Shown here piece after piece: positions 5,300-63,300 of a DNA stretch of 64,000 nt (within the stretch, counting starts at the first letter, position 1; every line of letters begins with the position of its first letter). The stretch comes from a virus (taxonomy: Duplodnaviria; Caudoviricetes): IMG/VR virus record IMGVR_UViG_2508501111_000003, positions 14,762 through 78,761 of that record, one strand, 5' to 3'. The position numbers and the translations under genes were made by a program. The notes beneath the pieces were generated by a model that ran no database searches, had not been told where the DNA came from, and worked only from the letters and a program-made list of their open reading frames with translations.

Positions 5300-5761
5300 T
5301 TATTGAAACGCTGCGCAATCATCACGATAGGTGTGCACCCATCGCAGCGGTGAAGGCTGACAGGTATTATCCATCGAGCATATGAGGCAGCAACGGAAGG
5401 GGGTGGCTTGACAATGGCCACATTCCCAGCAGGTATAACCAGCGCATAATCGCAAGATTGATTGTTCCATGAGATACCCATGATGCCTGTTGCGCTCAAC
5501 CATCCAAAGGATGTGTGATTGTTCATTCATCACCGTGGCTGTTTTGATACCGGGGTTGGCCACGACTATCGTATCGACCAGCGCAATTAAGTGTTCAACT
5601 GATTCACTAGAATCAGGAATATAGTAGGTTAATGTTTCGTTGTACCGATACTGAATACACGCATAGGGTTTCCTTACTTTTGCCGCATTCATCGCCGTGC
5701 GAACGGCATTGATGCTCCCATCAGAGAAATCGCCTGCGTTGGCAATATCAAACGTTTGCAT
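5300..5761 (-). CDS. Hypothetical protein with C-terminal Zn ribbon, paralog of 54943-55419
   Basis: CxxC...CxxC; PDxxESxEHLI motif shared with the paralog. Confidence 0.7.
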   Translation of the reverse strand: MQTFDIANAGDFSDGSINAVRTAMNAAKVRKPYACIQYRYNETLTYYIPDSSESVEHLIALVDTIVVANPGIKTATVMNEQSHILWMVERNRHHGYLMEQSILRLCAGYTCWECGHCQATPFRCCLICSMDNTCQPSPLRWVHTYRDDCAAFQ

Positions 5762-14136: not shown

Positions 14137-15015
14137 TTAGTTGATTGCGTTGGCATTCTCCCAAATAATTTCGTAGCCGCTTTCGCCAGCTTCGACCATC
14201 GCATACCGCTGCAAGGTATCAAAGGCTTTCGTGCCACTGGAGGTTGACGTAAAACCAAGCAAGCGGCGAAGGTCTTGTTTGGTTTTGAACTCGGTAATGT
14301 TCTTTTCGTAGAGAACTTTCAGGATTGCGTGAATATCATCAGCACTGATCGCACTCTTGCCATTGGTGGTGCGCAGAGCGGCTGATTCATCTGGTTCAGG
14401 CAACATTGCGATGGTTTCGTTGTGGCTTTCTGATGGCTCAAAACGCTCCTGCATGGCCGTTTGTCGTTGCTGTTTGCGTTGGGCTTCGAGGCGCTTGCGC
14501 TCGTTCTCAGCATCAACGCGCTCAAGGTGTTTAATATAGTCGATGGTTTGGCGCAGGCGATTCGGGGCGGTTGCGCTGGCATAGATGATCAGGGCAACGA
14601 AAGAACCAAATGTGCCCGCAATCAGATAGCCAAAGAAGCCCATGCTTGGCGGCATGTGGATGATCAAGGATGCGGTATTGAAGGTAACTTCCACGGCCAA
14701 CGCAATGATGAACGCAAGCCAGTTCCAAAAGCCAATGGGTTGTTTATGCTTGAGTTGAATGCCGATGTAAGCGCTCAACCACATCAAGGCCAAGTCAATG
14801 CCCAGCACCATGGCCATGGTTGCGCAGGCCACGATAAACCACGCGAAACCAACTAAACCATGGGTGAACGCAAGCATGGTGAATGCCATATGCACAAACG
14901 AAACCGCAATGAACATGTTGTTGAGTCTACGAAAGTTGGTGATTAAATTCTGAATATCATTGTGTTCATCAGGTGGTGGTTTTTCATACTCAATCGCGCC
15001 TCGGAATTTTGTCAT
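14137..15015 (-). CDS. Membrane protein with coiled coil and C-terminal wHTH-like domain (spread-protein-like architecture)
   Basis: AGGAG RBS at ATG 15015; about 4 TM, E/K/R-rich coil, helical C-terminus. Confidence 0.7.
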   Translation of the reverse strand: MTKFRGAIEYEKPPPDEHNDIQNLITNFRRLNNMFIAVSFVHMAFTMLAFTHGLVGFAWFIVACATMAMVLGIDLALMWLSAYIGIQLKHKQPIGFWNWLAFIIALAVEVTFNTASLIIHMPPSMGFFGYLIAGTFGSFVALIIYASATAPNRLRQTIDYIKHLERVDAENERKRLEAQRKQQRQTAMQERFEPSESHNETIAMLPEPDESAALRTTNGKSAISADDIHAILKVLYEKNITEFKTKQDLRRLLGFTSTSSGTKAFDTLQRYAMVEAGESGYEIIWENANAIN

Positions 15016-44633: not shown

Positions 44634-46067
44634 CTAGTAGCTATTCCACGAGCCAGCCATGGCTTCGTCTTCGACTTCCATTGGTTGACTGGCAACCATC
44701 AGGGCAATGGCCCATGCCATCACGAAATCATCGTGATAGCCTGCGGGTGCGCCCGTCCCGCCGTTCTTCAAAATCCGATAAATCGCCAGTTCATTCAGCG
44801 CCGTTTGATTGCGAATTGTGACCAACACATCGCGCAGTGCCGTGGCGAACAAGTCAATCATTTGCGGCTTGGTCTGCGCATTGGTGAGCCACCCTGCTCG
44901 CCCATCAAGGCCATACACGATGCGGGTGAATCCGGCCAGTTTCATCGTGGTCAATACCGCGTGACCGTGATTGTTCCGCTCAACCGCAACCGTGGCCCCG
45001 TACACGTCTGACAAATTCATGAGAATGCGAGCGTATTCGTCCGGTTCCCATTTGCCGTGGACGCTGGCCATTTCTTCCCACGACACCGCATCGATCAAGG
45101 TGGCAGCGCAGAAGTCGCCGTGCTCCAGCCCTTCGGCCACGTCCGCTGCCAGAATGTAGCGTCGTCCTTGCTGCGGCAGGTGGTAAACGGTCACGCCGTC
45201 CAGGAGCGAGAGCGATGCTGGAAGCTCATCGAGCGCAAGGCCATCGCTGGGATTTTGCTTCAGCAGCCATGGCATTTTGAATCGCGTGCGCCCTGACACC
45301 AAAAAGGCTTCTTGCGCGGTTGAGGGATATTCTTGCCGCACCATGTCCGGGTCGGTATATTCCTCAAGCTGGTTGTGATACCACGCCGCATCCCGCGTTG
45401 GTCGTGCCCACCACGGTAAAAAGATCGTGGTAAAGCGATTTTTGGCACTGATGGCCTTGAGCCACAGTTGATGAAACAGATTGCCAATCCCATTGGCCGT
45501 CGATAAGACAATCAGTTGGCCGCCGCCGTCGATCGTGGGCTTGAGCGCGGTATACAACTGGGTTGCCCAGAGCAGGAACGCGGCTTCGTCCAAAATCACC
45601 AGTGATGCCGTAAAGCTGCGACCTGCCCCTTTGGTCGCGGGGAGTGACTTGACCCGACTGCCATTGGCCCATTCCAGTTCGGTCGTGTTGTCCGTGACTA
45701 GCGCTGGCGAGGCCTCACGCATCCACTCGGGTAAGCGTTCATACAAGCGCTTGACCCGTTGCAGCATCTCATCGGCTTCGCCTTGGCCTTTGCTGAAGAT
45801 CAGCACCACTTTGCCCGGTTGGAAGAGGCAGAGCCACAACGCATAGGCGCAACACAACCAACTAATGCCTAATTGCCGTGCCTTGAGAATCAAGACCAAA
45901 CGCTGGATTAAGAGTGTCCAGAGCACCTGTACTTGGGCAGGCCAGAGCGTAAAGGGCATCGCGCCGCTGCCATCCCCCAACCCTTGGGCATCGTCGATTA
46001 ATCCGAAGTGGTGGGTGAAGTAGGCAGGGTCGGCATGGCACTTTGCCAGTTCGACAGCATTCGACAT
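44634..46067 (-). CDS. terL: Terminase large subunit
   Basis: LKARQLGIS Walker A, LVILDEAA Walker B, ADVAEG and HDDFVMA nuclease motifs. Confidence 0.95.
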   Translation of the reverse strand: MSNAVELAKCHADPAYFTHHFGLIDDAQGLGDGSGAMPFTLWPAQVQVLWTLLIQRLVLILKARQLGISWLCCAYALWLCLFQPGKVVLIFSKGQGEADEMLQRVKRLYERLPEWMREASPALVTDNTTELEWANGSRVKSLPATKGAGRSFTASLVILDEAAFLLWATQLYTALKPTIDGGGQLIVLSTANGIGNLFHQLWLKAISAKNRFTTIFLPWWARPTRDAAWYHNQLEEYTDPDMVRQEYPSTAQEAFLVSGRTRFKMPWLLKQNPSDGLALDELPASLSLLDGVTVYHLPQQGRRYILAADVAEGLEHGDFCAATLIDAVSWEEMASVHGKWEPDEYARILMNLSDVYGATVAVERNNHGHAVLTTMKLAGFTRIVYGLDGRAGWLTNAQTKPQMIDLFATALRDVLVTIRNQTALNELAIYRILKNGGTGAPAGYHDDFVMAWAIALMVASQPMEVEDEAMAGSWNSY

Positions 46068-46717
46068 TGTTCCTCACGCCACTGCTGCAATTCCTTGGCA
46101 GCCTGTTCCAACGCTGGACTATCAATCACAATCGGCGCACTGCGATCCCCTTTATGCACATGTTCTTGTTTCTGCTTGCGACCTCCCGTTTCCTTGGCCA
46201 AGTCATCGAGCACCCCGCGATAATCACTAATGAGGGCCGAGTTGTAGCGGTAGATTTCAACCTGCTCGGCATACTCGCCTGCCCCGATTTGTTTGACATC
46301 GCGTATCCATACATTCGGTCGCTTGTGTGGGTGATGTTCGTCAACCTCTTTAATTTGTTCTTCTAAATCCTTAGCCAACTCCTTGAGCTTGATCACCCGC
46401 TCGAAGTCAAGGCCTAAGCCGTCTTCAAACACCTCACGTCGTCGAGCGGCCAGCGCATCATTTTTTGCTTGCTCCAGCTGCGCATCATAGGCTTTCGCAC
46501 GATCGGTCCAATGGAATTCGGTTGACCAGTGAGCCAGTGTTTTGAAGCGAACTGTTGGCGGTTTGTTGGCGGTTTGTTGGCGGTAGCGCTCAAGCAAGAT
46601 GCGTAACGAACGCCCACTCCCAAGGCGCAGATAATCGTTGCAGGCGACTACCGCCTTATCCGATTCGGTGGCGTGACGTTGACCTGTGATAAGTTGTAGT
46701 GGTTCGTGCGTGGTCAT
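45998..46717 (-). CDS. terS: Terminase small subunit (probable)
   Basis: Overlaps the terL start; HTH-like N-terminus with WxxRAxAYD. Confidence 0.7.
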   Translation of the reverse strand: MTTHEPLQLITGQRHATESDKAVVACNDYLRLGSGRSLRILLERYRQQTANKPPTVRFKTLAHWSTEFHWTDRAKAYDAQLEQAKNDALAARRREVFEDGLGLDFERVIKLKELAKDLEEQIKEVDEHHPHKRPNVWIRDVKQIGAGEYAEQVEIYRYNSALISDYRGVLDDLAKETGGRKQKQEHVHKGDRSAPIVIDSPALEQAAKELQQWREEQCRMLSNWQSAMPTLPTSPTTSD

Positions 46718-46848
46718 TGCTCGCCGCCTCGGTCGTTTCGCCGCTGGCGCGGCGGATAATATTAAGCGTCTTGCGATAGGTCATCGCTGATGACGATGAA
46801 GAAACACAGAACAAAGCCGATGGAGATCAGCGCACACCAGAGCATGGA

Positions 46849-47184
46849 TTATGCGGATTCCTGCATCTTTTTCTGCTTTTCAGCCATCACGAGATCGCGG
46901 AGCAGGGTTTCGCTGAATGGCAAGCCATACTGGGTAAGATAGCCACTAGCAACCTGCACCGCTTTGGTCAATAGATCCTCAGCCTTAAGGCCGTGGGCTT
47001 CGGCTGCTCGCAAGCCTGCTTTCACTGCTCCATAAAGCGCGGCACGTTGCTCTGCCCCAAGATTGGCAGCAGCCCAAGTGTTCAAGGCGTTTGCCGCTTT
47101 GGGGGCAGCCGATTTGAGAAAACCAACAGCGAACGAGAGGGTGGTCACAATGACCAGCGCGATGGCGGTTTGAGTTAGGGTCAT
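46849..47184 (-). CDS. Putative LL-H-type holin
   Basis: Single N-terminal TM; AVxAxxxAAE...KxxxA pattern. Confidence 0.6.
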   Translation of the reverse strand: MTLTQTAIALVIVTTLSFAVGFLKSAAPKAANALNTWAAANLGAEQRAALYGAVKAGLRAAEAHGLKAEDLLTKAVQVASGYLTQYGLPFSETLLRDLVMAEKQKKMQESA

Positions 47185-47630
47185 ACCGATGCTCCTTGTC
47201 CAAGGGGTGATAATAATTCATCAATGGGGTCAAGCCCCGTGTGTTGATCGTCGGTTCGTGGAGAGGTGGTTGGGCGATCAAGGCCTGCCCGCCGAGGCTT
47301 TTTGGGCAAGGGGATCTGATGGTGATGACAGGTGTCTTCGAGGGCTTGGATGTACAACTGGGCATCCATGAGCGCATAGGCATCGATCGTCCAGCGTTCA
47401 CGGGCATTGATCACTTCACGCCGCAAGGCGCTCAGCGCCAAATCGAACTGGGCACTGAGTGCCGCCAGTTCGCGTTTAGCCGCATCACGCACGGCATGCA
47501 ACTCGGCTTTCAAGCTAACGTTTTCGCGGACAACCGAGAGGTAGCCCCGCGCAAACATCCATGCCCCAACCATCACGACAATGGTGAGGCCGATCAGCCA
47601 TACCACCGCACCAATCAGTAGACTATCCAT
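47181..47630 (-). CDS. Membrane-anchored coiled-coil protein (first late gene, lysis-associated?)
   Basis: N-terminal TM followed by a coiled coil. Confidence 0.6.
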   Translation of the reverse strand: MDSLLIGAVVWLIGLTIVVMVGAWMFARGYLSVVRENVSLKAELHAVRDAAKRELAALSAQFDLALSALRREVINARERWTIDAYALMDAQLYIQALEDTCHHHQIPLPKKPRRAGLDRPTTSPRTDDQHTGLDPIDELLSPLGQGASV

Positions 47631-47695
47631 AGATCCCCAACCACATCAGGAGGAAGCGAAGGCCAGGCAAGAAGGGGTTTGCACAGAAAGGAGGA

Positions 47696-47741
47696 AAACA
47701 AAAAGCAACAGGTTAAATTGGTCTGTGCAGACCCCTGTTGC
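47696..47741 (-). terminator. Leader terminator right after the late promoter
   Basis: GCAACAGG...CCTGTTGC followed by TTTTTGTTTT; inner GGTCTG/CAGACC hairpin. Confidence 0.8.
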
Positions 47742-47749
47742 TTGCGAGG

Positions 47750-47777
47750 ATTATAGCACGTCTGTGCTGTTTGTCAA
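47750..47777 (-). promoter_or_regulatory. Consensus sigma70 late promoter, copy 1
   Basis: TTGACA-N16-TATAAT on the minus strand; TATCCCA repeats at 47794, 47804 and 47813 upstream. Confidence 0.85.
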
Positions 47778-47980
47778 TGAAAATAAAGCGAATTATCCCA
47801 ACTTATCCCACATATCCCACATCTTTAATAAAAATGATGTTGCAATTGAAATCCTTACATAGAGCGAATCTGATAATCTTCAATTATAGGCTCTGTCTAT
47901 GATTCAATGTTGTAACATACAACATGAAACTCTAAATCTTTTTTTTCGTAAAGAGGCAAAGTTAAAATGGAAGGAATTAT

Positions 47981-48328
47981 ATGGAATGGCAAAATCTTAC
48001 AATACAAATTCTATTTATGATTCTAGGACTATTGAGTTTTCTATATATGATTATTGGTCTATATAAATGGGTTGTATCAGGAGGAAATAGATATAATATT
48101 TATGAATCAATAAATATTATAAGTGATAGTATAATTATATTGATTATTGTAATTTCCTCTATTATTTTAGGTTATATACTGAAAATGGAATTTAATCAAG
48201 AATGGGCTATTATGATATCACTATTGTTTATGATATTTATGATATATTTGTATAAAAAAAGGATAATTTATTTATATAAATTTGATTACAAAAAAGATGA
48301 TGAAGGAAATGGGGATATATATGAATAA
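47981..48328 (+). CDS. Small 3-TM membrane protein
   Basis: Very AT-rich; overlaps the next start. Confidence 0.75.
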   Translation: MEWQNLTIQILFMILGLLSFLYMIIGLYKWVVSGGNRYNIYESINIISDSIIILIIVISSIILGYILKMEFNQEWAIMISLLFMIFMIYLYKKRIIYLYKFDYKKDDEGNGDIYE

Positions 48329-48683
48329 AATAGAATTTCATCAAGAAGCAAAAGAACTTGTTGTTAAATACAGAGAAGATTATGTAAAAGATATTATATT
48401 TCATTCGAGAAATAAAGCAATTATAGATAAAGATGAAATTGTATTAAAAAAGCATGTCCTATTTGCTATTGATAAAATTTATGCTAATAAAGAGAAAAAA
48501 TGGAAAGATGAAATGCTTAATATAATAGGTGGGATTTTTCTTGGTACCGGGCTGCAAGGTTTTATTAACGAATTAGGAATACCTGAAATTCGTATACCAT
48601 TACTTATTATTTATGTAATTATGCTTATTATTGGTGCAATATGTGTTTCTGTGGTAATAACATCATCTCGGCGACGCATATAA
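48321..48683 (+). CDS. Histone-fold (alpha2-alpha3)-like domain fused to 2 TM helices
   Basis: Gap-free manual alignment to the archaeal HMf alpha2-L2-alpha3 pattern. Confidence 0.55.
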   Translation: MNKIEFHQEAKELVVKYREDYVKDIIFHSRNKAIIDKDEIVLKKHVLFAIDKIYANKEKKWKDEMLNIIGGIFLGTGLQGFINELGIPEIRIPLLIIYVIMLIIGAICVSVVITSSRRRI

Positions 48684-48740
48684 AATAATTAAGAATTATG
48701 AGATTATTAATATTTTATTTATATAGTTATACAATTGATA

Positions 48741-49862
48741 TTATTCAGTGCGTTTGATTTCTCGTAAATAATAACTATTACCTCGCTTTTCGCAGAATAC
48801 CTCCACTTTCTCACCCCACAATGGGCGAACAATATCATTCATCATTCCTGGGGGTACAATAATCTTTTGTTTTTTATTATCGGAGAATAGCAGTTGAATC
48901 GTGTTATTCGCTGATATTTCATCAGCATGTTTTAATTGCCCCACAAAGGTCTGATGTTTAGATTTATCCTTTTTCGTTGCTATATTACTCCCCGCGAGCG
49001 TACTTATTTCAGGTGGGGTTTTATCAAAAGCAACTGATAAGACCTCATTACTCCCGCTTTGAAGCGTAGTCAAACCAACCATACGTACATCTTGTCCATC
49101 AGGGGCTATTTTTTTTGCAAGAGCAACGAAATTATTATAGTAGGACTCATTAGGTATACGTTCTTTTAACGATTGAAAATCTCCTTTATTTACTAAACTA
49201 ATATTCTGGATAACATCTTCGAGAACAATGCTAGAAAGATCAATCTCTGGTATATCAAAGCGTTGCTGTCTACCGAGTTGCAATGTCACTGCAAAGCTTC
49301 CCGCTCGTGGGGCTGACATGTAGACGCTATAACCCTCCTGAAGAACTTGGGCTGTTCCGCCCCTTTCTCGAAATTCTCGTTTTAGTAGGCGCTCTACAGT
49401 GCGAAAAATCATTCGTTCAATATCTTGTAGCCTACTTAAGAAGATGTCCATGAGAGTAAGCCCTGGGTAAATCTCTTGGCCAGTCATTGATACTTGAACT
49501 TGACCGGGATCAATTTTAACATCACGAATTGCAAGATGTCGTTGGAAGTGAACTTGTTCGAGTAAATCGCGCAATTCTTCCGCGATCTCATATGGAGGAT
49601 TTCCTGCCAGTGCTGTAGCAATTAAACGCTCTGCTAATCGGTGTTCGTCACAGTCAAGTGCCAAGGTGGCTGCACTACGATGAAGAATGGAACGAGTAGG
49701 TTCTGTATCAAAGGGTGCTACTAATGCTGCTGCTTCTATTTCTAGGTCAAGAGCCTGTCGTGAATAGGCAATAAAACTATGGATATCTCCAGTATGTTTC
49801 GCATGAAGTGCAAGATCTGCAAAGTCCATAGCTTGCATATGGAGTTCACGTACTGATTTCAT
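48741..49862 (-). CDS. Hypothetical protein: N-terminal helical domain and C-terminal beta (OB-like) domain
   Basis: EPTRSILHRSAATLA...GNPPYEIAEELRDL; coupled to the upstream gene. Confidence 0.75.
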   Translation of the reverse strand: MKSVRELHMQAMDFADLALHAKHTGDIHSFIAYSRQALDLEIEAAALVAPFDTEPTRSILHRSAATLALDCDEHRLAERLIATALAGNPPYEIAEELRDLLEQVHFQRHLAIRDVKIDPGQVQVSMTGQEIYPGLTLMDIFLSRLQDIERMIFRTVERLLKREFRERGGTAQVLQEGYSVYMSAPRAGSFAVTLQLGRQQRFDIPEIDLSSIVLEDVIQNISLVNKGDFQSLKERIPNESYYNNFVALAKKIAPDGQDVRMVGLTTLQSGSNEVLSVAFDKTPPEISTLAGSNIATKKDKSKHQTFVGQLKHADEISANNTIQLLFSDNKKQKIIVPPGMMNDIVRPLWGEKVEVFCEKRGNSYYLREIKRTE

Positions 49863-50425
49863 TTTCGTACAACCCTTGCTGTAGGTTGACTAAATTCAAC
49901 CACAACGACATATGCAGGCATTTGCATTGAATCGGAAGGATTCGTTTGCCTCAGTTTCAATTTGACGCGATTTTCAATGTCTTTACCAGATCCTTGGCGA
50001 ATACCTGAGACTTCTAAACGGGCATCATGTTTATCAAAAGGCAGTATATCATCCCCATCCTGCTTCGCCAACCAGTAATCAAACCCTGTTCCTTTTCGTG
50101 ATCGATTGATAACCGTATAATCTGTTAGCTCAACAGCGAGGAGACAAGCAATGCCACAAGCGGCGTGTTCAGTTGTATACTCTTCATCAGTCCATGCTGC
50201 GAGATGACGAGGCGTAATTTCATCCCAATCTTCAATAACAAAGCTATGATCGGATTTTGTATCGCACCGTCGTTCCACCGATAGCTGTACACCCCGAGAA
50301 TGACGCTGATCTTCCAAACGAATTGAGCAAGCCTCGATCAGGTAGCGTCCCATATTGGGAGTTAAGCCAGGTATCTTTGTTTCTAGATCGTTGAGCTGGA
50401 GTCTTTTCGATACTGGTTGGGTCAT
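49859..50425 (-). CDS. Putative restriction-endonuclease-fold protein
   Basis: GTGFDYWL...ARLEVSG (D...ExS, PD-(D/E)XK-like). Confidence 0.6.
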   Translation of the reverse strand: MTQPVSKRLQLNDLETKIPGLTPNMGRYLIEACSIRLEDQRHSRGVQLSVERRCDTKSDHSFVIEDWDEITPRHLAAWTDEEYTTEHAACGIACLLAVELTDYTVINRSRKGTGFDYWLAKQDGDDILPFDKHDARLEVSGIRQGSGKDIENRVKLKLRQTNPSDSMQMPAYVVVVEFSQPTARVVRK

Positions 50426-50477
50426 AAAATCCTCAGCATGATAAAAAGAAAGGCTTAATTATTAGCTACAAAATTTC

Positions 50478-50867
50478 TTAGGAGGGTATTGCAAAACATA
50501 GAAGGCCTTCGTTTTGATCATCAGCACCAATAAAATAATTGCCTTGTATATGAACTTTATTTTTTAATGATCGTATTTTTGATACTATATCGTGATCATT
50601 TTGATGGACAGTGAACCAGCTAACGCCATCCCCGCCATTATTGAGACGGTCTACAAATGCTCCAAAGCTTTCAACACTTTCAAAATCAACCTGTTGAATA
50701 TTTTTATAGTCTTTCTCAATTACTCTAATAAAATGCTGTGGATAGGATTTTTTTAATGCTTCTAATCTTTGTTTATCCTCTTCTAGTAACAAATCGTTAC
50801 TTTCGGCAGTTCGTAACTGTAACCACATAACAAACCTCCAACTTACTTTGATAAAGATATTCCACAT
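50478..50867 (-). CDS. Hypothetical protein
   Basis: AT-rich ORF, 129 aa. Confidence 0.6.
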   Translation of the reverse strand: MWNIFIKVSWRFVMWLQLRTAESNDLLLEEDKQRLEALKKSYPQHFIRVIEKDYKNIQQVDFESVESFGAFVDRLNNGGDGVSWFTVHQNDHDIVSKIRSLKNKVHIQGNYFIGADDQNEGLLCFAIPS

Positions 50868-51426
50868 ATTTAATATAGTGGGTTGTAGTCTATCACCTCC
50901 TAACGAACGCTACAAGACAAACATTTGTGCTTAAACAAAAACACCACCCAACTGGGTGGTGCTTGCAGTCCCCTCGCGAGCCTTAGTAACCTTGAGTGGC
51001 AGAACTACGGAAACATAAATCCTCACGATTATTGATCGTAATCCCTGCTGAGGATTCAGGTCTTTCGAATCGATGAATATATTGGTTATAGAATCTGGGC
51101 AGATAACGCTTTTATCCCCCAAAGAGGATTCAGGTCTTTCGAATCTAAACCTAAACGATTCTAGTACCAACTGGACATACCGGTTTTAATCCCCCAGAGA
51201 GGATTCAGGTCTTTCGAATAGGCTATTGACGCGATGTTTATCCCTATGTGGGAAGAGTTTTAATCCCCCAGAGAGGATTCAGGTCTTTCGAATACCTTTA
51301 ATTCGATTCAAACCGTCGCGTAAAACTTGGGGTTTTAATCCCCCAGAGAGGATTCAGGTCTTTCGAATACCTTTAATTCGATTCAAACCGTCGCGTAAAA
51401 CTTGGGGTTTTAATCCCCCAGAGAGG

Positions 51427-53362
51427 AGGGCTGGGCTTAACATAGAATTGGTTCCCCTGCCCGATCCATCAGGGTCGGGGGGCGACACCGATCCGCCGTA
51501 GCGCGACACCCATGCCCCAATCGGGGTCGTTTTCGACACCAGGCGACTCTCTATCGGGTACGATACGGGTATCAGATCCAACCATCCCCAGAATAGGAGT
51601 CGCTGATGCTGGATCGCATCATACCAAACATCCTTCGTCGCTTCAAGCGCCCTGTGGCCACCGTGCCCGTGTCCGATGGTGCCCTGCTGCCTACCCATCC
51701 CCGTCGTCCCTGCCCGCTCTCCATGCCGGATCTCCCCCCGATCATTGCCGCTGATCCCACCGCTGCTGCGGCGCATCAGTGGCTCGCCCCCATTCCGTGG
51801 CATGCTTTGCCGCCGCTCAGTGACCGCCCTCGGCCTGGGCCACGCCCCGCGCCGCGTGCCCCCTTTCTCGCCGCGTTCCTCCTCAAACTCGATCTCCAAT
51901 TGCCCTCCATGGGGCATTTGCGCCGCTATCTCCTGCGCCATCCCGCCCTCGTCTGGACGCTCGGCTTTCCCCTTCGGCCTGACCCTGCCGCCCCGCTCGG
52001 CTTCGATGTCGCCGCCAGTGTCCCGTCGCGTCGTCAGTTTGCCCGTGTCCTGCGAACCTTACCCACGCCCATGCTCGACTTCCTCCGCATGGCGCTCGTG
52101 CGGCGCATTCGTGATGCCCTCCCCCCCGATCACCACGCCACCTTCGCCGACACCATTGCGGGCGATACCAAGCACATTTTGGCGTGGGTCAAAGAGAACA
52201 ATCCCAACCGCTTTGCCCCGGATCGCGCGAAGAAGCAGGTGCAACCCCCCGGTGATCCGGACTGTCGGCTCGGAGTCAAGCGCCGGAGTAACCAGCAGCC
52301 GACCCCCACCACCGATGGTCAATCGCCAACCCAGAGTAAGGCCGAAGCCTACTGGGGCTACGCCAGTGGCATTGTCGTCACGCGCACCCCCTTTGGCTCA
52401 ATCGTGCTTGCCGAACATACCCAACCGATCAATGCGGGCGATATGACCTATTTTGACCCGCTCATGGCGCAGGTGGAGCAGACGCTCGGTCGCCGACCGC
52501 GTAATGGCGTGTGGGATGCCGCCTTCGACAGCCAACGGGTCTACACCTACTTCCACACGGCTGGCGGGATGGCGGCGGTTCCGGTGCGGAAGCCCAACCA
52601 GCCACGGCAGTTTTCGCCCGACGGCGTGCCGCTGTGTGCCGCTGGTTTGGCCATGCCGCAACAGTTTACGTATGCCATGAACACCAATGGCCCGCCACAA
52701 GAGCGGGCACGCCATCGCTGTCCGTTGCTGTACCCGACTGCCACCGGCGAGCCATGCCCAACCAATGACAAACACTTTGCGACGGGCGGGTGTGTCACGA
52801 CGATCGGGACGCAAGTTGGGGCAACGCTGCGCTGGACGATCGATCGTGGGTCAGCGGCCTATAAAGCCTTGTATCGCGAACGCGCGTTGGTCGAACAGAT
52901 CAACAGCCAAGCGTATGCCTTGGGGATCGAATGGCCAAAACTGCGTCGTCAAAGCGCGGTCACAGCGTGGACATCCTTAATCTATGTGGTGATTAACCTG
53001 CGCGTCGTGCATCGCCAGCAGGGAACACACGACCCGATCCACGACTAACGTGGCATGCGTCTCGTCCGTGAATCGCCAGGGGGATGGCTTGGATGGATGG
53101 ACGGACGCAGCCACAGCGATCAGGGAACAGCCACAGCGGCGGATCAGGGATGATCGGTCGGCGTGATCGGCTGTCCGTGCATCAGCCAACGCCGCGCAGC
53201 AGCACACCGATGGGCTGCCGCTGCGCGGGATTGCGGGTAGCATAACGGGCGATGGGGCGGATCTGCCCACAAAAAAACCACGCAAAGCGTGGTGATCGGC
53301 CAGCGGCGGCGCGGAATGAGCGAAAAAACCTGCCAAAACCACGCAGGAATTCGTCCAGCCCT
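51427..53362 (+). mobile_element. Insertion sequence (DDE, IS4/IS5/IS1182-like), 1936 bp
   Basis: Terminal IR AGGGCTGG/CCAGCCCT; 10-bp TSD CCCAGAGAGG at 51417-51426 and 53363-53372. Confidence 0.92.
51606..53048 (+). CDS. DDE transposase
   Basis: AGDTK, WDAAFD and YRERALVE (YxxRxxxE) motifs; Cys-rich insertion. Confidence 0.9.
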   Translation: MLDRIIPNILRRFKRPVATVPVSDGALLPTHPRRPCPLSMPDLPPIIAADPTAAAAHQWLAPIPWHALPPLSDRPRPGPRPAPRAPFLAAFLLKLDLQLPSMGHLRRYLLRHPALVWTLGFPLRPDPAAPLGFDVAASVPSRRQFARVLRTLPTPMLDFLRMALVRRIRDALPPDHHATFADTIAGDTKHILAWVKENNPNRFAPDRAKKQVQPPGDPDCRLGVKRRSNQQPTPTTDGQSPTQSKAEAYWGYASGIVVTRTPFGSIVLAEHTQPINAGDMTYFDPLMAQVEQTLGRRPRNGVWDAAFDSQRVYTYFHTAGGMAAVPVRKPNQPRQFSPDGVPLCAAGLAMPQQFTYAMNTNGPPQERARHRCPLLYPTATGEPCPTNDKHFATGGCVTTIGTQVGATLRWTIDRGSAAYKALYRERALVEQINSQAYALGIEWPKLRRQSAVTAWTSLIYVVINLRVVHRQQGTHDPIHD

Positions 53363-54448
53363 CCCAGAGAGGATTCAGGTCTTTCGAATTCTTACAGGCG
53401 AACAGGCCGCTGAATACGGTCTGCGTTTTAATCCCCCAGAGAGGATTCAGGTCTTTCGAATCTTGGCTTAGATACGGCCAAAATGTATTATTACACGGCA
53501 GTTTTAATCCCCCAGAGAGGATTCAGGTCTTTCGAATTTATTATTAACCGCATGGGTGGCTATGGGGCCATCAACCCCGTTTTAATCCCCCAGAGAGGAT
53601 TCAGGTCTTTCGAATAATGAATGCGGTAGAGAAATTTCGCCCCAGAATCGATTTAGTTTTAATCCCCCAGAGAGGATTCAGGTCTTTCGAATCGATAGTT
53701 CACCCGTTCTGAGGGTACTCACCCAAAGGTTTTAATCCCCCAGAGAGGATTCAGGTCTTTCGAATGCGCTTGAGATAGCCCAGCCGCCCGCCACCAACGT
53801 TGCCAAGGTTTTAATCCCCCAGAGAGGATTCAGGTCTTTCGAATTTTGTCGTAGACAGCTACGATTTGATCGTAGTGCTCAGTTTTAATCCCCCAGAGAG
53901 GATTCAGGTCTTTCGAATAACCAAATTCCTGTGATCGAAAATGGCTTCCTGAAGGGATGTTGTTTTAATCCCCCAGAGAGGATTCAGGTCTTTCGAATAT
54001 AGCCGAGACTGGCGACATCGCGGGTTCAATTATATGGGTTTTAATCCCCCAGAGAGGATTCAGGTCTTTCGAATCAACGTCAGCGGGGTGCTGGCTGTAG
54101 CTGCGGATTTGATGGTTTTAATCCCCCAGAGAGGATTCAGGTCTTTCGAATAATAAGCAAGCTGATAGTATGGTTCGTAGCGCCAAAGGTGTTTTAATCC
54201 CCCAGAGAGGATTCAGGTCTTTCGAATTAATCGCTCACTAGCCTATTGAATTGGCGGGGCCAATGTGGTTTTAATCCCCCAGAGAGGATTCAGGTCTTTC
54301 GAATCAAGAACTTGCCCAAGTTGCTCGAACGTATTTCAAGTAGGTTTTAATCCCCCAGAGAGGATTCAGGTCTTTCGAATCTTGTAAGCGTTTTGATTTG
54401 ACCAGTGTTGGGCGGTTTTAATCCCCCAGAGAGGATTCAGGTCTTTCG

Positions 54449-54600
54449 AATATACCCCATTTTTTAGGGCTTTGCAAGGGGCTAAAATGAACGGTTTGCG
54501 CGGTCCGCTTAAATTTGTTCAATTAATGCCTATTCTGCGCTACAAATAACGGTGGAAAACTGCCTTTTAGACCATTGGAATGGGATCGCGCGGCATATAC
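54449..54600 (-). promoter_or_regulatory. CRISPR leader with candidate promoter
   Basis: Noncoding, next to perfect repeats; TTGCAA-N17-TATATT at 54477-54449 on minus. Confidence 0.6.
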
Positions 54601-54656
54601 CACTTTTTTGCCAAGTATTGGCATGATCACGGTCTTGTATTCGCTGATGCTACCGA

Positions 54657-54823
54657 ATCAGGAGGAAGCGAAGACCACGCAAGAATGGGCATGCACAGAA
54701 AAGAGGAAAACAAAAAGCAACAGGTTAAATTGGTCTATGCAGACCCCTGTTGCTTGCGAGGATTATAGTGCGTCTGTGCTGTTTGTCAACAAAAATAAGC
54801 CAACGTATCCCACATATCCCACA
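54657..54823 (-). repeat. Late-control region copy 2 (promoter 54762-54789, terminator 54707-54753)
   Basis: TTGACA-N16-TATAAT and the GCAACAGG/CCTGTTGC terminator are both conserved. Confidence 0.93.
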
Positions 54824-54942
54824 CTCGACTAATATAATTCGTATCACCTAAACTATTGTGCTATCACAAAGCCCACCTATTTCTCTACGATCACAGATGC
54901 CTTTGTTACAGTCGGAGGCAATGGGTATTCAGTATGTCTAAC

Positions 54943-55419
54943 TTATGGCTGTACTCCTTCTGAATCGATATGGTCGATATTTTCAAGATCATGGCGACGC
55001 TGATCCATCCAGCGTTGTCCACACACATCGTGTCGCGGTTGCATGGAGCAACGCGGGCATTGATCAAAGCCAGTGTGGGCAGTATAGCCACAGGCGTAAC
55101 AGCCATGAGAGATGGTATGACTGACCCGCACCGATTCAACTGGATATCCATAACGGGTTTCGCGGGCAACGCGCCAGCAGATTGTATGGTCTTGATTAAA
55201 CACATCCACTAACACGAGATCGGAGTCGGTAATCACCAGCGCATCAACAATCTCGATCAGGTGTTCTGCCGATTCCCCGAGGTCAGGCACGAGGTAAAGG
55301 ACATGCTGTGGTGATGATCTGCGGCTGAGCATCGCAAAAGGTTTTCCCTCTTTGGTCGTATGGAGGTGCTCCCAGAGTGGGTTATCGTGCGTACCAGTGG
55401 CAAGGTTAAAGTACTTCAT
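54943..55419 (-). CDS. Zn-ribbon hypothetical protein, paralog of 5300-5761
   Basis: PDLGESAEHLI and CYACG...CPRC motifs. Confidence 0.75.
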   Translation of the reverse strand: MKYFNLATGTHDNPLWEHLHTTKEGKPFAMLSRRSSPQHVLYLVPDLGESAEHLIEIVDALVITDSDLVLVDVFNQDHTICWRVARETRYGYPVESVRVSHTISHGCYACGYTAHTGFDQCPRCSMQPRHDVCGQRWMDQRRHDLENIDHIDSEGVQP

Positions 55420-55437
55420 ATATGGCCTCCCTTTAGA

Positions 55438-56592
55438 TCATTGGACAAGTAGTGTGGGCCGAGGGACGGTCACGGCGGGCGATCTTATGTGGTCAATCGC
55501 ATCTTGAAGCGTGGAAAAACTCTGAATCGCATTGGGTAAAGAACGGATGGATTGCAAGTCCATCGCCACATGGGGCGGAATGCCTACAAACACAGGGCGG
55601 CATCCTAAAATCAGGCTAACCTGAAGGAGATCGGCAAGTGTTGTCAATGTATCGGGATCAATTCCTGTAACTCCCGTGAGATCGATGAGTACATGCCGCA
55701 GTTGTTGCTGCTCAATCTGGCGCGGGAGCAGGGATGCTAATTGATCCATCCGAGCACTGTCGAGGTGTCCGATCAAGGGGAGCACTGCTCGCTGAGGAAT
55801 AATTGGGATTACCGGAAAGGTCATTTGGCTGAGTTGCGTGGTCAGGGCTTGTCGTTCAGCACTACTCGATGCTAAGGCCGTGAGGGTGTCTCGTAACTGG
55901 GTATTGCGGGCCTCGCTTGCTGCGTGCGCTGTGCGTAATTCCTGCTGGGCGGTTTCAAGTTCTGTTGAGCGTGCTTGGAGATGCTGATAGGCCAGTTCGA
56001 GGGTGGTATCAAACCGTCGTCGTAGACTCGCGATTACGAAGATAGCTTGGATCACCATCCCACCACCGATCAGGAATAAGATAGTGCGGACGCGAGCAAA
56101 GGCGGTGCGTTGTTGATTGGCCGTCTGTTGGACGAGGATGCGCCGTTCATTGACCATCGTGCGGCTCTGAAATTCGAGGTTGATAAAGATGGTAGAGAAG
56201 GAAGAAAGATCGTTTATTTCTTGGGCAGGGACACGCTGAAACTCACGCTGAATCACGGTAAATGCTTGATATTCAATAGAGGTGTATTGCGATTCTGCTG
56301 CACTGCTATAGAAGCTATTCATGGCAGCGAGACGATTCGACACGAGATTGTGACGCAGCTGATATTCAGTAGCCAGGGTAGGATTGTTCGTCCCTCCATC
56401 GTTGGCAACGGCACGCAACCGTAAGATATCGCGTTCGAGTTGAGTTGGATTCCAGATTCCATCATCCTGCTCAAAAAAGCGGGTCGCCTGACTTAAGGTT
56501 TGAAGATTGAGGACAGTGAGTGCGAGTAAGATACCAAGAAGGCTGCTCATGCCGCCCGTCATGATTCGGTGTGGCCATGGTGATCGATTCAT
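55438..56592 (-). CDS. Membrane sensor with coiled coil and STAS domain (RsbR-like)
   Basis: PVIPI...VLPLIGHLD...LIDLTGV STAS motif; 2 TM. Confidence 0.88.
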   Translation of the reverse strand: MNRSPWPHRIMTGGMSSLLGILLALTVLNLQTLSQATRFFEQDDGIWNPTQLERDILRLRAVANDGGTNNPTLATEYQLRHNLVSNRLAAMNSFYSSAAESQYTSIEYQAFTVIQREFQRVPAQEINDLSSFSTIFINLEFQSRTMVNERRILVQQTANQQRTAFARVRTILFLIGGGMVIQAIFVIASLRRRFDTTLELAYQHLQARSTELETAQQELRTAHAASEARNTQLRDTLTALASSSAERQALTTQLSQMTFPVIPIIPQRAVLPLIGHLDSARMDQLASLLPRQIEQQQLRHVLIDLTGVTGIDPDTLTTLADLLQVSLILGCRPVFVGIPPHVAMDLQSIRSLPNAIQSFSTLQDAIDHIRSPAVTVPRPTLLVQ

Positions 56593-57524: not shown

Positions 57525-58772
57525 ATGCGACGTTTCCTTATTGCTTTGGGCGTGCTCGCACTACTTGGGCTACCACGGGCGGTATCTGCTCACGACATGT
57601 GTTTTCCCTCGGACAAAACACCGTACTGCCTTCCTGATCCGTTTAGCGATTATTGGGAATTGAACGGTGGGTTGCCCGTTTTTGGCTATCCAGTGACAGC
57701 CAAGGCCGATGAACTCAATAAAGACACGGGCAAAATGCATCCAACCCAGTGGCTTGAGCGGAATCGGCTTGAATATCACAACGAAAATAAAGGAACGGCC
57801 TATGAAGTGTTGCTGGGATTGTTGGGAAAGGAACGCCTTGCCCAATTAGGTCGTAATCCTGCGAGTGAGCCGCGTGAAGCCGGGGCCAAAGCTGGGTGTT
57901 TGTGGTTTGAACAAACGGGACACAACATCTGCAATATTGAAGGTACGGTGGGCTTTAAGACCTATTGGGAAACCCATGGCTTGAAGATCAATGGCATGGA
58001 CAAGTTTAGCCAATCGTTGCAACTGTTTGGACTTCCATTAACGGAACCAAAGATGGAAACCAATAGTGCAGGCGATAGGGTGTTGACGCAATGGTTTGAG
58101 CGTGCCCGCTTTGAATGGCATCCCAAGAATGGTGCTGAATATAAGGTGCTTTTAGGTTTGCTTGGCAAAGAAGTTCATGATAATGCTGGCTCACCTCCGC
58201 CAGCCACCCTTGCGATTGTTAGCCACCGCACGTATGTTGATAGTATCGACTTCCGGTGGATTGTTGGTGAAGTTGTGAATAATACAGCGAGCAATCAGCA
58301 ATTTGTTAAGGTTATTGCGAATCTTTATGATGCTGGGAGTAATCTTGTTGGTACTGAGACTGGCTATACCATCCTCGATATTGTTAAGGCTGGTACGAAA
58401 TCACCGTTTAGTATTCTGATTCTTGAGCCTCCAGCGAACTTTGATCATTACACGCTACAAATTGAGGCCCGTGAAACCACAACTGCACCCCTCGATACAT
58501 TCGCCATCTTAAGTTTTGGCAATCGTGATTCCGAGATTGGCAATTACCGCTATGTGTATGGTGAAGTCCGCAATGATACGGGTGTTCCAGTGAAATTTAC
58601 TAAGATAGCGATTACCTGTTACACCAAAGAATCAACGGTTCAACAAGTAGGGTTTGGCTACACATCGCTGCAAAATATTGCTGTTGGGCAGTCCTCTGCA
58701 TTTGAAATATTGCTATCACAATGGTCAGGCGTTGAGCGCTGTGAGGCGCAAGTTCAAGCCAGAAAGCAATAA
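57525..58772 (+). CDS. Secreted protein with two Chloroflexi-type repeats and tandem FxLYD-like domains
   Basis: Signal peptide; GGLPVFGYP...QWLERNRLE present twice; IVGEVVN...ANLYD. Confidence 0.82.
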   Translation: MRRFLIALGVLALLGLPRAVSAHDMCFPSDKTPYCLPDPFSDYWELNGGLPVFGYPVTAKADELNKDTGKMHPTQWLERNRLEYHNENKGTAYEVLLGLLGKERLAQLGRNPASEPREAGAKAGCLWFEQTGHNICNIEGTVGFKTYWETHGLKINGMDKFSQSLQLFGLPLTEPKMETNSAGDRVLTQWFERARFEWHPKNGAEYKVLLGLLGKEVHDNAGSPPPATLAIVSHRTYVDSIDFRWIVGEVVNNTASNQQFVKVIANLYDAGSNLVGTETGYTILDIVKAGTKSPFSILILEPPANFDHYTLQIEARETTTAPLDTFAILSFGNRDSEIGNYRYVYGEVRNDTGVPVKFTKIAITCYTKESTVQQVGFGYTSLQNIAVGQSSAFEILLSQWSGVERCEAQVQARKQ

Positions 58773-63050: not shown

Positions 63051-63300
63051 TTGTTGGACGGCTATCGGTTGCATGCCGTAAATGCAGCGCCAGAAGCGTA
63101 ACTGGCACGGCCTGAGCAGTCCACAACCTGCTCACCAGCGCCAGTGTGGCGCAACTCGGTATGTATCGATGCTCACCCGTTGTTGTGCGGAACAGCGGCC
63201 CCGTTCGCCAGCAGGACTACCTTAACAACTGCATACGCAGTCGTGGCATATCGTGCGCACCCAGCGCGGGATTGCAGCATACCAACGAAGGCTATAGGCG

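Follow-up and report, generated by a model that had tools for sequence, protein, structure and literature searches.

A prophage of the bacterium Herpetosiphon carries two diverged copies of a late control element that bracket a cassette of 6.8 kb, and this cassette contains a CRISPR array. The region belongs to IMG/VR record IMGVR_UViG_2508501111_000003 (Duplodnaviria; Caudoviricetes), of which positions 14,762 to 78,761 were analysed (64,000 nucleotides, hereafter the window); the host genome comprises 6.8 Mb and is designated G000. We consider the arrangement best explained by a late promoter that was displaced in phage recombination, next to a cas-less array that uses the type III-A Cas proteins of the host, and give this explanation a probability of roughly 0.6. 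To us the arrangement resembles a scar of recombination that surrounds a phage weapon of known type, and not a new control circuit.

Two diverged copies of a late control element

Positions are window coordinates throughout, and all parts of both element copies lie on the minus strand. The copies and the operon start below copy 1 are composed as follows.

47640-47821, minus strand: copy 1 (P1) of the late control element, with three TGTGGGATA boxes (47794-47821), -35/-10 hexamers (47750-47777), hairpin and U-tract (47694-47742) and 5' untranslated region (UTR) tail
5' UTR tail of copy 1, minus strand: stops 10 nt short of the ATG at 47630
54652-54823, minus strand: copy 2 (P2), with two boxes (54806-54823), -35/-10 hexamers (54762-54789), hairpin and U-tract (54706-54754) and the shared tail down to 54652
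44634-47630, minus strand: start of the late operon under P1, encoding membrane proteins of 149 and 111 amino acids (aa), TerS (45998-46717) and TerL (44634-46067)

As the initial annotation had stated, the copies are direct repeats with perfect promoters, TATCCCA boxes and predicted leader terminators. They share 92% identity over 167 aligned nt and differ by one 10-nt indel; a repeat search scored 89% identity between 47640-47800 and 54652-54812. An alignment that begins at the first box and closes with the common end CCTCCTGAT has 177 columns with 13 substitutions, the longest identical run being 34 nt. A whole-genome search located full copies of the element at these two places only. Each copy displays a perfect TTGACA-N16-TATAAT promoter sequence; these are the sole 12/12 matches within 47-56 kb, and by our own arithmetic the chance expectation is ~0.008 per whole window, both strands included. 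Copy 1 has three and copy 2 has two of the TGTGGGATA boxes, which read TATCCCA on the plus strand. A nested hairpin begins a few nucleotides past the predicted start site and runs into UUUUUGUUUU, with nine U in 10 nt. It folds with -17.9 kcal/mol in both copies (z = -3.5 and -4.0 compared with shuffled sequences), and together with the U-tract is a predicted intrinsic terminator, just as the promoter is a predicted one.

Copy 1 is the putative promoter heading the lysis and packaging operon with its terS and terL genes, because it lies 10 nt before the gene for the 149-aa protein, which is followed by those for the 111-aa protein, TerS and TerL. Copy 2 is oriented towards the CRISPR leader, and its -10 hexamer (54762) is 311 bp away from the first repeat (54451). 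Both assignments agree with the initial annotation, which had let copy 1 drive the late operon and had pointed copy 2 into the CRISPR leader at a distance of about 310 bp. The related copy that it anticipated in a unit left of the window, termed unit A, was not found there by BLAST, box clustering or a scan for near-consensus promoters.

Plus-strand open reading frames (ORFs; 47581-47862 and 54575-54832) span the two copies in one frame, but a protein-coding nature of the repeat was rejected: the frames are without coding constraint, since the 13 nucleotide changes produce 11 amino-acid changes in 53 residues. The palindromes GTCTG-CA-CAGAC and AGCAC-N4-GTGCT were likewise dismissed as repressor operators, as further sites in the window do not go beyond chance.

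The boxes and the perfect promoter recur in six sibling prophages, distributed over five other Herpetosiphon genomes; four of these loci are from H. geysericola, H. giganteus, strain NSE202 and a metagenome-assembled genome. Scans of IMG/VR, of one genome per species and of metagenomes for the box-plus-promoter pattern returned only these same Herpetosiphon loci, which IMG/VR lists as viral. Every sibling has a single copy of the element, located at the head of its late operon, so that the single-copy alleles for which the initial annotation had proposed to search are present in all six. In all of them, a serine recombinase is followed by replication genes, XRE repressors and cargo that varies and may include arrays, and then by the promoter and the late operon. 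The slot upstream of the promoter is mosaic and holds different cargo in each sibling. Arrays of the same repeat family occur upstream of the single promoter, on the strand of the late operon, in siblings G005, G006 and G001:C23, and no array is present in G007, G002 and G001:C44. Because three single-copy siblings carry arrays and three do not, the array is optional cargo of a hypervariable slot and independent of the duplication. The host-like leader of the window array also precedes the G006 array, without a promoter copy upstream. Only the prophage studied here, one of seven related prophages, has a second promoter copy, which joins the conserved leader at a distance of 55 nt on its upstream side.

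Pairing within the hairpin is kept through three compensatory changes in G005 and G001:C44, and four sequences show no change in the inner stem or in the 7-nt bulge AAUUUAA. This co-variation, along with the start of the hairpin within a few nucleotides of the predicted transcription start, would suit a gene for a small RNA of ~48 nt that serves, for example, as regulator or as binding site for a phage protein and was doubled for dosage. We regard such a gene as improbable, given that four siblings possess the same boxes and promoter but lack the hairpin, their promoter running directly into a small gene. Moreover, the window holds no Rfam family besides the CRISPR repeats, which the hairpin on inspection does not convincingly resemble. 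The 83 nt from the -35 hexamer to the end of the U-tract contain 3 of the 13 substitutions between the copies; the stronger conservation of the hairpin falls short of significance (Fisher p = 0.11).

The CRISPR array and its host counterpart

The array, its leader and the insertion sequence (IS) that divides it consist of the following parts.

54452-54651, minus strand: CRISPR leader of 200 nt; 54452-54596 is homologous to the leaders of the host type III-A and G006 arrays, 54597-54651 is a unique linker to P2
54449-54477, minus strand: leader promoter TTGCAA-N17-TATATT, abutting repeat 1 and common with the leader of the host type III-A array
53363-54451, minus strand: leader-proximal part of the array; 14 identical 37-nt repeats (ATTCGAAAGACCTGAATCCTCTCTGGGGGATTAAAAC on the sense strand), one IS-truncated repeat and 14 spacers of 34-43 nt
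51428-53362, plus strand: IS4-family IS with a DDE_Tnp_1 transposase gene (51606-53048) and the target duplication CCCAGAGAGGA at 51417-51427 and 53363-53373
51034-51427, minus strand: old, distal section of the array; three regular and two degenerate repeats, half of a further repeat and five spacers, two of which are identical
50886-50980, minus strand: array trailer; the last degenerate repeat, then an intrinsic terminator (stem 50939-50964 and T-run)

In total, the array has 20 repeats of 37 nt, the 17 intact ones being identical, and 19 spacers of 34-43 nt; it is situated between the XRE/replication genes and the terminase operon. The repeat matches Rfam family CRISPR-DR30 with 54-59 bits, the sole Rfam family in the window, and its exact sequence is found nowhere else in the host genome. 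We take the minus strand as the sense strand of the array because the degenerate repeats lie at the low-coordinate end, because a conserved terminator closes that end, because the leader is homologous to the host leader and because all host arrays follow cas1-cas2 and read ...GGGATTAAAAC. The plus-strand call by Rfam for the repeat carries no weight on array direction. The trailer is 97% identical to that of the G005 prophage and 93% to that of G006, and the G005 value exceeds that of the surrounding sequence.

The 1.9-kb IS, encoding a 480-aa DDE transposase, is inserted within a repeat and flanked by the 11-bp target duplication. Its terminator-like hairpins face the leader, so that transcription from there probably fails to reach the five oldest spacers. 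The adjacent spacers at 51294-51331 and 51369-51406 are identical, which points to duplication of a repeat-spacer unit by recombination. With its own predicted leader promoter and terminator, both conserved, the array is a self-contained unit, and its output of CRISPR RNAs (crRNAs) should therefore need no copy 2.

No cas genes were detected in the prophage: Cas1 (Pfam) is encoded at four distant loci only, and tblastn with ten type III-A Cas proteins yielded no match in C1:1.50-1.64 Mb. The host locus around the array at C1:3176515, in contrast to the 20 repeats of the phage array, has only four repeats and encodes a complete type III-A system with Cas10/Csm1, Csm2-5, two Csm6-like proteins, Cas6, Cas1 and Cas2. 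NCBIfam models confirm this locus (L036) by TIGR02578 at 472 bits and by matches for Csm2-5, Cas1 and Cas2; its Cas6 scores 55.9 bits, slightly below the cut-off of 58.65. The last 59 nt of the phage leader are 85% identical to the C1:3176515 leader, and a second block of 45 nt is 78% identical. The phage repeat, too, is nearest to that of this locus (28/37), and the two have in common the AATCCTC/GGGGATT stem and the ATTAAAAC end (8-nt handle). Leader, leader promoter, repeat hairpin and 8-nt handle of the phage array thus appear to be copies of those of the host type III-A array.

Spacers of the family and of its hosts match other family members. One spacer of the G005 prophage fits a 148-aa late ORF of the G006 sibling at 34/39 positions (L030:7491-7529 versus L033:19280-19318). 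It agrees with type III targeting, because it is antisense to the late mRNA, as a type III crRNA must be. Among the host arrays, a spacer of the C2 plasmid array matches the late region of G007 just downstream of the promoter (30/32), and the 125-repeat array on C1 has a spacer against G001:C44 (31/36); a further host spacer matches the resident neighbouring prophage at C1:1541914 (23/25). The host spacers concerned are located at G000:C2:103741, C1:2843801 and C1:2845392.

The host spacers against G007 and G001:C44, as well as the shortness of the host type III-A array relative to that of the phage, would also be expected if the phage array were a decoy whose crRNAs occupy host Cas6 and Csm and so dilute the host crRNAs directed against the phage family. 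We judge this very improbable. The phage spacers are diverse, of normal length and mutually unrelated, the spacer of one sibling targets another sibling, and known RNA anti-CRISPRs are solitary repeats. Instead, the arrays probably serve phage-versus-phage conflict through host Cas proteins, which the G005 spacer against G006 supports and which fits published virus-borne arrays (PMC6858448, PMC4556805, PMC4173771, PMC4916379).

A match of 27/28 between a window spacer and G005:C11 drops to 28/42 over the full spacer and was taken as chance. In G006, an array of 78 repeats whose leader is of host type (C4:410963) contains a spacer that matches conserved early-region sequence in five sibling prophages, the present one among them, with 26/29 identities to the window (63110-63138) and 30/31 to the prophage of G006 itself. 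The sibling arrays at L033:46-3194 and L034:69-2523 contain mixed repeats with many variants in the 5' half and the loop, the stem being kept, whereas the window array is uniform. Their mixture suggests recombination between arrays, or old arrays past acquiring spacers. No cas genes were seen beside sibling arrays in the regions examined. The neighbouring prophage left of the window has cas-less arrays of its own (G000:C1:1529679-1529870 and 1533013-1533640) with a related repeat (27/37). Their leader differs and resembles that of a small array at C1:2565275, and two of their spacers are duplicated.

Origin and working of the second promoter copy

We propose that the repeats are two diverged copies of a conserved element that heads the lysis-packaging-morphogenesis operon in a family of temperate Herpetosiphon phages. 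The element consists of two to three tandem TGTGGGATA boxes and a consensus sigma-70-type promoter, joined in this sub-lineage by a predicted promoter-proximal hairpin terminator. In the simplest history, two related phages would have been joined in the hypervariable slot between immunity genes and late operon, such that the resident late promoter of one came to be followed closely by leader, array, cargo, promoter and late genes of the other. The resident promoter, displaced in this way, would be copy 2, copy 1 would be the working late promoter, and the IS would have entered the array later. In the lysogen, the leader of the array would most likely drive its transcription; host Cas6 would then process the transcript, and host Csm complexes would take up the crRNAs and exclude related phages. 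Copy 2 would give rise mainly to a terminated RNA of ~48 nt plus some read-through. It would feed the array only if the late switch antiterminates at the hairpin, in which case the transcripts would extend past the array terminator and through the cargo as well.

Compared with copy 1, copy 2 has lost the third box, and its spacer palindrome AGCAC-N4-GTGCT is broken. The proposed history is consistent with the edges of copy 2: its homology ends abruptly on both sides, and the flanks are absent beside copy 1. Two parental lineages or an old event are favoured because the copies differ by 8% and an indel while the array repeats are uniform. The initial annotation had suggested that the cassette was gained, or can be lost, by recombination at the late-control region. 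Single-copy alleles in the six siblings and the variable slot support this suggestion, whereas arrays also stand beside single copies, and an isogenic empty allele was not found among the siblings. The 34-nt identical run and the identity of 92% would allow occasional deletion of the cassette by homologous recombination.

Several points weigh against our proposal. The promoter of copy 2 is perfect and its hairpin unbroken, with a single change in the loop, which could mean ongoing selection and not a passive scar. The closeness of the two copies also fits duplication in place. Transcription of the element and the array is predicted from sequence, and the pairing with type III-A from sequence likeness, although TTAAAAC or CTGAAAC likewise closes the repeats of three other host CRISPR-Cas loci. 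Finally, the 19 window spacers have no target in their own genome, in the sibling prophage regions (six loci, 40-80 kb each) or in 50,697 phage records.

If the first of these points is given full weight, copy 2 would be maintained as a second late promoter that causes a surge of crRNA and cargo transcripts whenever the late switch overrides the leader terminator, for example to exclude competitors during lytic growth. Its 12/12 hexamers, two boxes, intact hairpin and U-tract and the few substitutions in the 83-nt core, as well as its aim at the leader 311 bp from repeat 1, would be accounted for. We nevertheless think it unlikely that copy 2 is selected in this manner, as the layout exists in only one of the seven related prophages, sibling arrays lie upstream of the promoter, and the array has a conserved promoter and terminator of its own. 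The lost third box and the broken palindrome also speak against selection, and an IS with terminator-like hairpins already interrupts the array.

Such a role would, in addition, call for a regulator. Coupling of crRNA output to the late switch requires antitermination, because the terminator of copy 2 is intact between start site and leader. In phage lambda, late control rests on the constitutive promoter PR', the terminator tR' and the antiterminator Q. The consensus promoter that heads the late operon, with a predicted intrinsic terminator close behind it, formally resembles PR'-tR', but we find no support for assigning it to the lambda family. Among Q-family antiterminators, PF06530 gave only sub-threshold matches far from the prophage and PF03589 none; PF06323 had no match either, which is uninformative as the control genomes were also unmatched. 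Boxes and a spacer palindrome are present near the promoter, where a Q-type system would have its binding element, whereas a -10-like pause hexamer is not evident on inspection of the first 25 transcribed nt. Four siblings, unlike lambda, have no terminator. A match to the RinA/ArpU (Ltr) family was missing among the small early or adjacent proteins tested, a subset of the prophage ORFs, and the perfect TTGACA -35 hexamer differs from the promoters of that type, which lack a good -35. The proteins scanned included no other named late regulator. The idea of the initial annotation that crRNA output may be coupled to the phage late switch is accordingly disfavoured by the leader promoter and terminator of the array, by the intact terminator of copy 2 and by the failure to find an antiterminator gene.

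The cysteine-rich protein p158, encoded upstream of copy 2, was considered as a Q-like antiterminator. This is unsupported: it has no family match, its paralogues are found among cargo, and hairpin-bearing siblings lack it. At the end of the early operon, a 106-aa winged-helix protein (L063:4420-4740, corresponding to G000:C1:1621419-1621739) is 80-90% conserved in all sibling prophages, and is the sole DNA-binding candidate seen for a late regulator.

Duplication in place would require no second phage: tandem duplication or unequal crossing-over within one lineage would have left a neutral, slowly decaying repeat. In its favour, the two copies are each other's nearest relatives, at 92% compared with 85% and 81.5% to G005, and at most 85% to any sibling element. 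However, they have diverged by 13 substitutions and a 10-nt indel over a time in which no change entered 17 CRISPR repeats, copy 2 has sharp homology edges flanked by sequence that is absent beside copy 1, and the slot is mosaic in every sibling. An origin within one lineage is thus doubtful as well, and the joining of two related phages remains our preferred explanation.

The promoter boxes (TATCCCACA) are DnaA-box-like 9-mers that cluster at only four places in the genome: at both promoter copies, ahead of a small Zn-ribbon ORF and within a block at 5.5686 Mb. The sites outside the window are at G000:C1:5566375-5568806 and C1:657428-657454. The 5.5686-Mb block has at least 10 boxes, is conserved in all seven other Herpetosiphon genomes and is separated by 2.2 kb from the part of the chromosome where canonical DnaA boxes are clustered most densely, near the minimum of the detrended GC skew (5.62 Mb); the dnaA gene, at position 470, is apart from it. 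These positions suggest that oriC is in the 5.5686-Mb region and that the boxes of the late promoter are of the origin type, which makes DnaA a candidate for binding them. One might picture the phage array downstream of a working late switch, so that induction would set off terminator-resistant transcription and flood the cell with phage-chosen crRNAs and cargo transcripts at the right time to keep competing phages out during lytic growth, and the switch might read the state of the host via the DnaA-box-like 9-mers; we hold this to be distinctly unlikely.

Related systems and remaining genes

The finding belongs to a known class, that of cas-less prophage arrays using host Cas proteins. To our knowledge, the isolated prophage and virus arrays studied so far are mostly type I or archaeal. 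Distinctive for the present case are the type III-A partner, the copied leader, the spread across a phage family and the orphan late promoter facing the leader. Isolated CRISPR arrays are rare in prophages, with 212 in 26,987 (PMC7145637).

The Clostridioides difficile prophages phiCD630-1/2 and phi027 harbour CRISPR arrays that rely on the type I-B Cas proteins of the host (PMC4556805, PMC4173771). Those arrays are likewise long and cas-less, are served by host Cas in trans and have a proposed role against competing phages. The Herpetosiphon array differs by its likely type III-A (Csm) partner, its host-copied leader and the copy of a phage late promoter-terminator upstream; furthermore, expression was shown in C. 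difficile, whereas our array is known from its sequence. The Saccharolobus portogloboviruses SPV1 and SPV2 carry mini-CRISPR arrays (Medvedeva et al. 2019, PMC6858448), also cas-less and with host-like, promoter-bearing leaders. Related viruses of that group have spacers against each other, leading to heterotypic superinfection exclusion, to which we liken the situation in the Herpetosiphon family. Those viruses are archaeal and their arrays have one or two spacers, as opposed to a bacterial host and 20 repeats here, where cross-targeting applies to a sibling array only (34/39) and not to the window array. Phage mini-arrays known at the time were stated to be leaderless (PMC6858448). The CRISPR array of cyanophage N-1 (Chenard et al. 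2016, PMC4916379) is host-related and resides in a phage without cas genes, and host Cas proteins were proposed to serve it. This phage is lytic, however, its array has five repeats with transcription shown in infection, and a duplicated phage promoter was not described.

With respect to its architecture, the bracket resembles moron or cargo slots with displaced boundary copies (sequential displacement, Rhs/type VI secretion system loci), in which a conserved boundary is duplicated around new cargo and siblings differ in cargo. The same is observed here, as the boundary is duplicated and the relatives have one copy with different cargo. In our case, though, the boundary is a promoter-terminator unit and not a gene end, and the orphan copy could still fire into the cargo. 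The duplicated promoter is a clear example of the entry of a cargo block at a conserved regulatory boundary; if copy 2 is inert, the bracket amounts to ordinary mosaic-phage biology. A Chloroflexota prophage family whose arrays have a leader and repeat apparently copied from a type III-A locus of the host, and in which one spacer or more is directed against the late transcript of a sibling, offers a workable system for the use of host type III immunity by phages against each other, for spacer acquisition by such arrays via host Cas1-Cas2 and for the effect of an upstream phage promoter on crRNA timing.

The interval between the copies comprises 6,830 bp, with a plus-strand gene pair of 27% GC, three minus-strand genes of ~40% GC and the CRISPR array in two pieces. 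Apart from the array and the IS, its genes are these.

50478-50867, minus strand: p129, no family match
49859-50425, minus strand: p188, PD-(D/E)xK/NOV_C-like predicted fold
48741-49862, minus strand: p373, member of a large, widespread family without a name
47981-48683, plus strand: the 27% GC gene pair, small membrane proteins without family match, convergent with the rest of the cassette

The initial annotation had described this interval as AT-rich defence-like genes and the CRISPR array. The array and, as to AT-richness, the 27% GC pair conform to that description, while the other three genes have ~40% GC and the 1.9-kb IS went unmentioned. PADLOC, Pfam and NCBIfam returned no name for p129, p188 or p373. 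The genes for p188 and p373 also adjoin each other in three further, scattered Chloroflexota genomes, but the sibling prophages lack the pair; in metagenomes, over 900 relatives of p373 occur, all unnamed. We therefore regard p188-p373 as a conserved, nuclease-like pair and a candidate defence system outside the PADLOC listing, and the label defence-like as plausible for the cargo.

To the right of copy 2 are the genes for p158, a STAS-domain membrane protein, a 415-aa protein and XRE repressors, of which the first two are located as follows.

54943-56592, minus strand: genes upstream of P2, encoding p158 (Cys-rich) and a 384-aa membrane protein with a STAS domain

The p158 paralogues are cargo elsewhere in both prophages, at 5318-5695 of the window and in unit A. 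Beyond the window follow an O-like initiator, a DnaC-like loader, the 106-aa winged-helix protein, a MazG-like protein and a serine recombinase adjoining host aspS. The first 220 aa of the 415-aa protein (57525-58772) are ~63% conserved in all sibling prophages, sometimes in two copies, and the C-terminal parts differ; in the prophage studied here, its gene has the opposite orientation relative to the late operon.

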